A DNA stretch of 64,000 nt from Alphaproteobacteria bacterium (GTDB lineage: Bacteria > Pseudomonadota > Alphaproteobacteria > RF32 > CAG-239): the NCBI GenBank assembly GCA_017479985.1, contig JAFVBL010000030.1, positions 2,509-66,508 of the forward strand, read 5' to 3'. Position numbers and translations under genes: made by a program. Shown piece after piece: positions 62,081 to 62,890 of the stretch; position 1 is the stretch's first letter; each line of letters begins with the position of its first letter. Under the pieces are notes generated by a model, which was not told the DNA's origin, did no database searches, and worked only from the letters and a program-made list of their open reading frames with translations.

Positions 62081-62308
62081 TTAATCTTCAAAAATAATAC
62101 GTATTTTTTTGCCGGAAAATTCGGTGAGGCGGCGCAATGCCGAATACTGAATAAACTTGCCGTTTTCCATACCTTCAATGATACGCTCGGGTATTTTGGT
62201 TTGATATGCAACCGTATGCAGATACATAAATTTTTCTTGCCGAAGACGCCATAATTCAGCGCCGATTTTGCGCAACATATCTTTTTCCACATAAAAACAT
62301 CTGGACAT
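62081..62308 (-). CDS. Small XRE-family helix-turn-helix regulator
   Basis: IGAELWRLRQEKFMYLHTVAYQTKIPERIIEGMENGK fits an HTH_3/XRE pattern. AAGGAG lies 9 nt upstream of the ATG. Confidence 0.55.
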   Translation of the reverse strand: MSRCFYVEKDMLRKIGAELWRLRQEKFMYLHTVAYQTKIPERIIEGMENGKFIQYSALRRLTEFSGKKIRIIFED

Positions 62309-62340
62309 TGCCCTGAACTCCTTAATTTGTTAAATCAAAA

Positions 62341-62488
62341 CAAAAACGACCACTCAAAAAGCGGTCGGGAGTTCACAACTGCAAGAAGACAGTCCGGTTT
62401 ATTCAATATATTCAACCGGCTCCCCACCTGCGAGGAGTTATTTTCTTCTTGGGAGCTGTGATACTCCGCCGACAATCTCTTGCCGACG
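62341..62488 (-). ncRNA. Structured leader / candidate riboswitch-like element (class not recognised) ending in an intrinsic terminator
   Basis: The minus-strand transcript would fold as P1, P2 and two hairpins. It ends in the terminator CGACCGC-TTTTTGA-GTGGTCG-TTTTTGTTTTG (62341-62367). A G:U pair in the stems is only consistent with the minus strand. Confidence 0.4.
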
Positions 62489-62494
62489 AAAATC

Positions 62495-62522
62495 ATATTA
62501 ACAAAAATAATAAAAAATGCAA
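62495..62522 (-). promoter_or_regulatory. Sigma70-like promoter for the structured leader
   Basis: Minus strand: TTGCAT (62522-62517), 16-nt spacer, TAATAT (62500-62495). Confidence 0.45.
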
Positions 62523-62611
62523 GCTAAAAATAGTAAAAACACTGTATTTAAATCTTAGGCCATATTGAAAACAAAAGGAAAATTTATATGTTTTGATTGA
62601 GGAGAAAAAAT

Positions 62612-62890
62612 ATGAAAGTTGAAAAAAATCTTGAAAATTTGAGCAAGTGTTTGTGTATGAAATGTCCGTCGTATACCAATCATTGCAAGCTGAAAAATGC
62701 ACCGCAAAATTTTATAAAACTGATGAAAAATTTTGATGATACGCGTCATTATGAGAAAATGTTTTGTGCTTACGAAAAAAGCGATTGTATTTTTGAAGGT
62801 AACGGTTGTTTATGCACAACCTGCGAAGTGTTTCGAAATTATAATTTAAAACACAGAAGTTATTGTCTGCACACCGGTGGTGTAATGTAA
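62612..62890 (+). CDS. Small Cys-rich protein (DUF2769-like)
   Basis: GAGGAG RBS. The product is MKVEKNLENLSKCLCMKCPSYTNHC...FCAYEKSDC...CLCTTCEV... with a repeated CxC/CxxC pattern. Confidence 0.5.
   Translation: MKVEKNLENLSKCLCMKCPSYTNHCKLKNAPQNFIKLMKNFDDTRHYEKMFCAYEKSDCIFEGNGCLCTTCEVFRNYNLKHRSYCLHTGGVM

Follow-up and report, generated by a model that had tools for sequence, protein, structure and literature searches.

In the 64,000-nucleotide window analysed here, a stretch of contig JAFVBL010000030.1 from an uncultured alphaproteobacterium (assembly GCA_017479985.1), the minus strand carries a structured RNA directly in front of a small gene for an XRE-type helix-turn-helix (HTH) regulator. 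This RNA is one copy of a multicopy leader family and a distant, uncatalogued relative of two known groups, the Brt RNAs of Bartonella and sRNA-Xcc1 (Rfam RF02221), rather than a wholly new class; the three probably belong to a wider superfamily whose members had not previously been connected. We propose, with a probability of roughly 60%, that the leader is a fold-switching attenuator that would gate both transcription and translation of the promoter-less regulator and would by default release a stable small RNA. A first-pass annotation had described a self-contained unit of promoter, RNA and intrinsic terminator as the leader of a small XRE-type HTH gene. This description holds, and direct reading confirmed the minus-strand positions it gave for the promoter, RNA, terminator, Shine-Dalgarno (SD) sequence and 75-amino-acid gene, the main elements of which are as follows (window coordinates).

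62522–62517, minus strand: promoter −35 box TTGCAT, read directly
62500–62495, minus strand: promoter −10 box TAATAT, 16-nt spacer from the −35 box
62335–62492, minus strand: structured RNA, a type I copy of 158 nt with terminator and U-run, matched with 168.5 bits by R1, a covariance model built from seven copies in the same genome
62315–62323, minus strand: SD region AAGGAGUUC; AAGGAG is followed, farther on, by the ATG at 62308
62081–62308, minus strand: open reading frame (ORF) of the 75-amino-acid XRE/Cro-C1-type HTH gene (Trp-like), ATG at 62308

The promoter, called a good one in the first-pass annotation, is positionally conserved: in an alignment of the seven paralogous copies, the −35 box is where their likeness sets in, and the distance between the two boxes is constant. 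Its boxes are identical to the Escherichia coli consensus at only 7 of 12 positions, however, and it was not in the output of a consensus scan of the window that did list the terminator. The start site probably lies near 62488–62490. The choice of the minus strand is supported, as R1 and a second model of the RNA core (R2, described below) both score this strand only at the locus and G-U pairs, on which the first-pass annotation had based its own argument for the strand, are common.

The terminator is ~30 nt away from the ATG of the 75-amino-acid ORF, which leaves no room for a separate promoter. As the HTH gene has no visible promoter of its own, it would be expressed only via read-through. 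The Pfam family HTH_25 scores 20.8 bits on its product, below the cut-off of 24.6, and a profile of the protein matches the HigA antitoxin with E = 0.002. An AlphaFold2 model (predicted local distance difference test score, pLDDT, 79) superposes on BldD, C.AhdI, C.Esp1396I, HipB and ClgR with a template modelling (TM) score of ~0.72 and a root-mean-square deviation of 1.2–2.3 Å. The product is thus predicted to fold as an XRE-type HTH protein, an assignment that rests on the modelled structure. A profile comparison of the 75-amino-acid protein with the Bartonella HTH protein found no meaningful match.

That the RNA folds consistently, as had been claimed, is borne out by both its stability and its covariation. 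The minimum free energy of a 161-nt stretch is −65.6 kcal/mol, compared to −41.6 ± 3.7 kcal/mol in dinucleotide shuffles (z = −6.5), and 0 of 200 shuffles were as good. RNAalifold on the seven own-genome copies and pair counts in 106 copies aligned to R1 (alignment A3) support six helices.

62468–62487, minus strand: helix 1 (P0), 5′ hairpin GUCGGCAA-GAGA-UUGUCGGC with arms 62487–62480 and 62475–62468; compensatory changes in 8 of 8 pairs, 98.3% of cells pair
62368–62467, minus strand: helix 2 (P1), a long-range helix that closes the three-branched body, found by RNAalifold and pair counts, GGAGU (62467–62463) and UCACAGCU (62461–62454) with AGUUGUGA (62380–62373) and ACUCC (62372–62368); compensatory changes in 8 of 13 pairs, outer GGAG:CUCC pairs invariant
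62382–62451, minus strand: helix 3 (P2), CAAGAAGA (62451–62444) with UCUUCUUG (62389–62382); compensatory changes in 7 of 7 pairs
62420–62437, minus strand: helix 4, hairpin c:d, CUCCUC (62437–62432) with GGGGAG (62425–62420), the proposed anti-antiterminator; G strand invariant, other strand alternating between C and U only
62394–62419, minus strand: helix 5, CCGG hairpin, CCGGUU/AACCGG with the 14-nt loop GAAUAUAUUGAAUA (62413–62400); stem with compensatory changes in 6 of 8 pairs
62337–62367, minus strand: helix 6, intrinsic terminator CGACCGCUU-UUU-GAGUGGUCG (62367–62347) with U-run (62346–62337), found independently by the consensus scan; compensatory changes in 9 of 9 pairs

Over the whole of A3, 98.0% of cells pair, as against 33–45% when the partners are slid by 1–3 columns, percentages that lean upward because the alignment was fitted to the model structure. 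Compensatory changes are found in 38 of the 49 pairs, and the number and variety of these double changes are not explained by the fitting. The loop GAAUAUAUUGAAUA is the same in 7 of 7 own-genome copies and almost invariant in a first set of 30 copies; in the 112 loci described below it was part of the search pattern and is invariant by construction.

The first-pass annotation had extended P1 outwards, pairing GUCG (62473–62470) with CGAC (62367–62364), and had taken the CGAC shared with the terminator as a sign that P1 and the terminator are partly exclusive. The proposed outer pairing was rejected. It pairs in 56% of cells, compared to 54.8% in shuffles, and shows no covariation; furthermore, the GUCGGC bases belong to the 3′ arm of P0 and the overlap therefore fails in that form. 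The idea of exclusive pairings that touch the terminator survives in another, better supported overlap, namely in a helix between 62428–62420 and 62371–62363.

62363–62428, minus strand: closing helix d:d′, GGUGGGGAG (62428–62420) with CUCCCGACC (62371–62363), from the alignment to RF02221

This helix encloses the CCGG hairpin and a short hairpin ACUG/CAGU (62393–62390 with 62381–62378) and gives the sRNA-Xcc1-like core, which we propose to be the antiterminator. It excludes the CUCCUC/GGGGAG hairpin and the outer part of P1, and it takes 5 nt of the terminator 5′ arm. Within type I, the 5–6 bp at the core of d:d′ show no variation and are thus uninformative, the flanking pair 82–159 covaries (UA 49, AU 11, CG 10, UG 5, other 25), and the next two are confined to subgroups (GGU with ACC, UAA with UUG). 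In an alignment of 27 cores across subfamilies, made by plain MAFFT and not fitted to a structure (A4), the share of paired cells is 94%. Compensatory changes were counted in 15 of 19 pairs; for the closing helix the figure is 6 of 9, and for the second hairpin 3 of 4. Nearest-neighbour energies calculated for the RNA before the terminator 3′ arm are −52.9 kcal/mol for the main fold versus −44.9 kcal/mol for the alternative. With the main fold 8 kcal/mol more stable, termination should be the default.

The region in dispute between the two folds is also linked to the ribosome-binding site. The segment GAACUCC (62374–62368) is the exact complement of GGAGUUC (62321–62315) in the SD region. The 30-nt leader from the terminator to the SD (TTTAACAAATTA-GGAGTTC) is near-identical in nine copies, with single base changes, and variants such as UAACUCC with GGAGUUA are present. 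Across 98 copies, the longest perfect complement between the anti-SD segment and the 45 nt past the terminator has a mean length of 6.5 nt, versus 4.1 nt for shuffled leaders. The predicted fold of the read-through transcript pairs GAACUCC with the SD around the terminator hairpin and, given this pairing, the alternative helix would both weaken the terminator and free the SD. It is from these complementarities that we infer a switching logic acting on terminator and SD together.

The source genome (1.18 Mb in 43 contigs, 83% complete, 42% G+C) contains seven full copies of the RNA with 78–81% identity, two more that are cut by contig ends, and nine paralogues of the 75-amino-acid HTH protein. 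Of 25 genomes from this genus, 21 contain the RNA in 1–12 copies as detected by R1, which also gives weaker matches of 190–210 nt. A loop-based pattern retrieved 112 loci from species-representative genomes, all of them uncultured Alphaproteobacteria metagenome-assembled genomes (MAGs) from the rumen, other ruminant gut compartments and the human gut (RUG, RGIG, UBA3307, UMGS63, HGM). A Trp-like protein of ~70–79 amino acids follows 72 of 84 type I copies (ORF start within 120 nt), and what comes after most of the remaining copies is either another small HTH protein or a tandem second RNA copy. BLAST of the window RNA against a plasmid collection gave no match.

A second form, type II, comprises ~210-nt leaders with the same core in the source genome, which are distinguished by an internal loop that is symmetric (GAAUAA/GAAUAA) and by an anti-antiterminator pairing of far greater length. 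Four of the six type II leaders matched by RF02221 lie upstream of two family-2 glycosyltransferase-like genes, a lipoprotein gene and a membrane protein gene; the subfamily is also found before a 343-amino-acid ORF, and not before HTH genes. In other genomes, the genes behind related leaders encode proteins of pilin-like, secreted and outer-membrane types. It thus seems that the small gut genomes use a single RNA design to gate both a whole set of paralogous XRE regulators and cell-surface genes.

C42:5660–5745, C42:8831–8925, C11:24853–24948, C11:27666–27759, C26:4320–4415 and C41:65024–65115: type II loci L174–L178 and L180
C21:1239–1312 and C12:30471–30556: further type II loci in the source genome
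L056 1271–1658, L057 1501–1887, L045 1268–1663, and L102, L112 and L120: head-to-tail type I pairs

These pairs occur in relatives, with the two copies ~230 nt apart and no protein gene between them. In the source genome itself (G000), the sequence GCATATATTGAATAAAGCC at C7:33171–33184 resembles the conserved loop and sits immediately upstream of the promoter of the copy at C7:33223–33384; it may be the remnant of an older copy. On the other side of the RNA promoter in the window, and divergent from it, lies a 97-amino-acid, cysteine-rich DUF2769 gene (62597–62890, plus strand, Pfam E = 1.5e-13), the start of which is only ~75 nt from the −35 box.

The RNA had originally been described as being of an unrecognised class, and a scan of the window at Rfam gathering thresholds returns no family. 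With relaxed thresholds, the only notable match is sRNA-Xcc1 (RF02221), at 28.7 bits (E = 0.005) versus a gathering score of 53 bits, by which the window RNA does not count as a member. Weak matches to Trp_leader, Chlorobi-1 and SpF10 (E ≥ 3) were dismissed as chance. The source genome contains 12 sub-threshold RF02221 matches, six of them type I copies at 21–29 bits and six other loci at 27–38 bits, and a relative in the same order reaches 40.4 bits. The window RNA has the architecture of RF02221, in which a closing stem surrounds two hairpins and a joining strand precedes the 3′ strand of the stem.

The relationship was also examined from the other direction with R2, a 73-position core model built solely from alphaproteobacterial sequences (the window family and relatives). 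R2 finds 15 copies in the source genome, and it matches 40 of 301 evenly drawn alphaproteobacterial genomes (~13%; 36 of 254 genera, mostly small genomes) and 16 genomes of other classes of the phylum. When nine of the non-alphaproteobacterial loci were scanned with RF02221, four (L199, L203, L206, L208) scored 58.9–75.8 bits, above the cut-off. As RF02221 matches the window family and R2 finds accepted Xcc1 members, the detection is reciprocal. The RNA is therefore unrecognised in the sense that no Rfam family reaches threshold, but not in the sense of standing alone, given this reciprocity with sRNA-Xcc1 and the ground plan that it probably shares with Brt, described below.

In three of these Xcc1 loci (L203, L206, L208), segments ~120 nt upstream of the RF02221 match have complements in the joining strand and in the second hairpin loop: CUCGAAAC with GUUUCGAG and AAACAAAG with CUUUGUU at one locus, UGAACAC with GUGUUCA and CAUAAAG with CUUUAUG at another, and UGCAAAC with GUUUGCA and CACAAAA with UUUUGUG at the third. 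The pairings differ compensatorily among the three loci and correspond to the long-range P1 and P2 of the window RNA. This suggests that the 87-nt RF02221 family may be only the 3′ core of a larger RNA or leader. The three loci also have a hairpin with a U-run after it between the upstream segments and the RF02221 part. Elsewhere, in larger alphaproteobacterial genomes, the core is located before small RovC_DNA-bd-type genes (PF10074; L201, L202, L204, L207), neighbours that may point to regulators of integrative elements.

The Brt RNAs (Brt1–9) are nine highly expressed RNAs of 194–203 nt, each upstream of an XRE gene (Trp) (Tu et al. 2016, MicrobiologyOpen, PMC5387305). An abundant ~200-nt RNA with little read-through into trp was shown experimentally, and the authors, who called the RNAs genus-specific, proposed riboswitch-like and trans roles with a 3′ hairpin gating read-through (PMC5387305). 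Using the published oligonucleotides, we located Brt copies on five Bartonella plasmids, where the sense strand runs into the HTH gene. Direct membership of the window RNA in Brt was rejected, since its hosts are rumen and gut MAGs and the Brt oligonucleotides do not match. Inspection by eye found no match between the published probe and primers and the window RNA, the probe site was not found with up to three mismatches allowed in G039, a genome suspected to be from Bartonella, and a search of viral contigs for the Brt pattern found none. There is no BLAST-level similarity between Brt and the window RNA, and R1 and Rfam gave nothing significant on the Brt loci of two Bartonella plasmids.

R2, in contrast, matches Brt at the expected place and strand with 31.0 bits (E = 9e-8) and 24.4 bits (E = 8e-6), E-values that hold for 2.9 kb only, versus 12 and 9 bits on the opposite strand. 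The sequences from which R2 was trained included two that bridge the groups, L052 and L053, whose first hairpin has UAUGUCCA...CUAAAAG as in Brt, and the link to Brt is consequently transitive. One bridging sequence comes from a complete 2.0-Mb genome of another family, where it stands upstream of an XRE gene. An alignment made without L052 and L053 (A5) was not used, as its 3′ strand fell into two registers. The window RNA shares with Brt the presence of several highly similar copies per genome and the position immediately upstream of a small XRE gene with no room for a promoter; it does not share the nucleotide similarity or the restriction to Bartonella. Structural homology with Brt is likely, although not proven. 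sRNA-Xcc1 and Bartonella appear together in no searchable paper.

Considering all of the above, we envisage that the attenuator would work as follows. By default, the nascent RNA would adopt the more stable branched fold, the terminator would form and transcription would stop. A stable RNA of ~150 nt would be released, which may also act in trans. A trigger, be it a protein, an RNA or a physical condition, would move GGGGAG from CUCCUC onto CUCCC-GACC. This shift would weaken the terminator and at the same time pull the anti-SD off the SD, such that the regulator is transcribed and translated.

Several points weigh against such a switch, or against the kinship. The GGGGAG:CUCCC pairing is invariant within type I and offers no covariation there, a single flanking pair covaries convincingly and the next two pair in ~40% of copies. 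The alternative fold is at a disadvantage of 8 kcal/mol, and the two folds might in part form together, as a pseudoknot, instead of replacing one another. For this locus, the start site, the termination and the read-through are predictions from sequence. To these must be added the upward lean of the pairing percentages in A3, the small search space of the Brt E-values and the bridging sequences in the training of R2.

Alternatively, the RNA could be chiefly a trans-acting small RNA (sRNA) with a constitutive terminator, in which the 14-nt loop served as the seed or binding site, the HTH gene received a constant trickle of read-through and the alternative pairing was a tertiary or pseudoknot feature instead of a switch. 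The RNA does have its own promoter and a strong terminator, its loop GAAUAUAUUGAAUA is single-stranded and near-invariant while the stem covaries, tandem RNA copies in relatives have no gene between them, and distinct small transcripts accumulate from both Brt1 (PMC5387305) and sRNA-Xcc1 (PMC2996969). Yet such an RNA would not be expected to be tightly linked to a promoter-less HTH gene, as it is in at least 72 of 84 copies, or to be followed by a leader whose SD/anti-SD complementarity is kept past the terminator. Furthermore, no perfect complement of the loop was found elsewhere in the 83%-complete genome, where near matches look like background, and between subfamilies there is covariation in the closing helix, which overlaps the terminator. 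We thus consider a chiefly trans-acting role unlikely, though worth keeping in mind.

The complementarity to the SD could have yet another meaning, in which the leader is an immunity RNA of the C4/IsrK type: excised, it would pair through its anti-SD, in cis or in trans, with the SDs of paralogous HTH mRNAs, resulting in mutual translational repression. Such RNAs contain a segment that can pair with the downstream ribosome-binding site, and GAACUCC and AACUCCU are both complementary to the SD region, which is kept in all copies. Relatives of the core also occur near mobile-element genes. Two non-alphaproteobacterial R2 loci are followed by genes for Rha-family and KilA-N/ORF6C proteins, and an R2 match in L209 (region 1501–2097) lies ~380–500 nt upstream of matches to isrK/c4-a1b1 and C4 on the same strand. 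With its three consecutive structured RNAs, this region resembles an immunity region of the P1 type, and the same tandem arrangement was reported in Xylella (PMC12189769). In the window, however, neither the gathering threshold nor a limit of E ≤ 10 gives a match to the models of C4 (CL00128, RF01695) and isrK (RF01394), the stable fold engages the anti-SD bases in pairs so that they are not obviously free, and processing of the leader is putative. An immunity RNA, which overlaps with the attenuator and does not exclude it, has a low probability.

A true riboswitch, with the conserved loop and junction as a small-molecule aptamer that chooses between terminator and antiterminator, is improbable. 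In its favour, the loop and junction nucleotides are invariant, the terminator and antiterminator pairings are mutually exclusive, the alternative helix, with its 5-nt overlap with the terminator 5′ arm and its partial covariation, would be a candidate expression platform, and the idea was raised by the authors of the Brt paper (PMC5387305). Against it, up to 12 copies are detected per genome in front of paralogous regulators, related leaders precede genes for glycosyltransferases, pilin-like proteins, membrane proteins or lipoproteins and phage Rha/KilA-N antirepressor-type proteins that point to no single metabolite, no Rfam riboswitch matches in the window, and the conserved bases are in a hairpin loop and not in a closed pocket. 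Where the first-pass annotation called the leader riboswitch-like, the sense of metabolite sensing finds no support in these downstream genes, which share no single metabolic pathway.

Returning to the fold-switching attenuator, the kinship of the three groups gives it a wider relevance. In Bartonella, biofilm formation and the main adhesin are controlled by Brt RNAs, and in Xanthomonas, virulence regulators govern sRNA-Xcc1. The window family is a well-sampled third branch from uncultured Alphaproteobacteria of rumen and gut, with more than 100 type I copies as well as longer subfamilies. This depth of sampling gives the covariation to define both a common fold and a second fold that competes with it and involves the terminator and the ribosome-binding site. 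The outcome is a concrete, testable model for Brt, sRNA-Xcc1 and the window family. Far more tentatively, and with considerable doubt, one may picture Brt, sRNA-Xcc1 and the gut and rumen leaders as one ancient and widespread Pseudomonadota RNA class. A dedicated cellular factor would be sensed in it by the conserved GAAUA...GAAUA loop together with a three-way competition (CUCCUC / GGGGAG / CUCCC-terminator / SD); this factor might be a protein or, via SD- and anti-SD-like boxes, the translation apparatus itself, and one signal would switch on paralogous XRE regulators, surface-structure genes and mobile-element antirepressors.

Among known systems, the c4 RNA of phages P1 and P7 and IsrK resemble the window RNA in that they are structured RNAs upstream of a gene for a DNA-binding regulator and have segments complementary to a ribosome-binding site. 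In phage P1, c4 represses icd-ant at the level of translation, and control is exerted by translation-coupled Rho-dependent termination after processing. The window leader has a different fold and contains an intrinsic terminator.

sRNA-Xcc1 is closer. Described from Xanthomonas campestris as a trans-acting sRNA of 88 nt, it is carried by integrons, transposons and plasmids of beta- and gammaproteobacteria, and no leader role was assigned to it (Jiang et al. 2010, PMC2996969; Chen et al. 2011). The corresponding core makes up only part of the window RNA, which has in addition a 5′ hairpin, long-range helices and a terminator of its own. The 3′ two-thirds of the window RNA aligns over the full model positions 1–87, and the two have in common a GGG/CCC-rich closing stem, an AAUA...GAAUA first hairpin, a short second hairpin and a purine-rich joining strand. 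Both are multicopy and at times tandem (PMC12189769).

The comparison with Brt combines clear differences in detail with a probably common plan. The window RNA is shorter (~155 versus 194–203 nt) and its hosts are uncultured rumen and gut Alphaproteobacteria, not Bartonella. It has a GAAUA...GAAUA loop where the first inner hairpin of Brt has UAUGUCCA...CUAAAAG, and it ends in a U-run that is absent from the 3′ hairpin of Brt. The Bartonella HTH protein is a clear HTH_3 protein, whereas the 75-amino-acid form of the window is barely recognised by Pfam. The long-range pairings of Brt are GGGA(G)UAAAAG with CUUUUAACUCCC and CUUCCCGG with CCGGGAG, and an alternative pairing of UUCCGGGAG with CUCCCGGAA surrounds two hairpins. 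In two plasmid copies, the elements of Brt follow the same order as in the window RNA, from a 5′ hairpin through long-range helices and a 3′ hairpin to the SD and the HTH gene. In both cases, a multicopy RNA of 150–200 nt with a stable fold is located directly upstream of a small XRE gene in an alphaproteobacterium.

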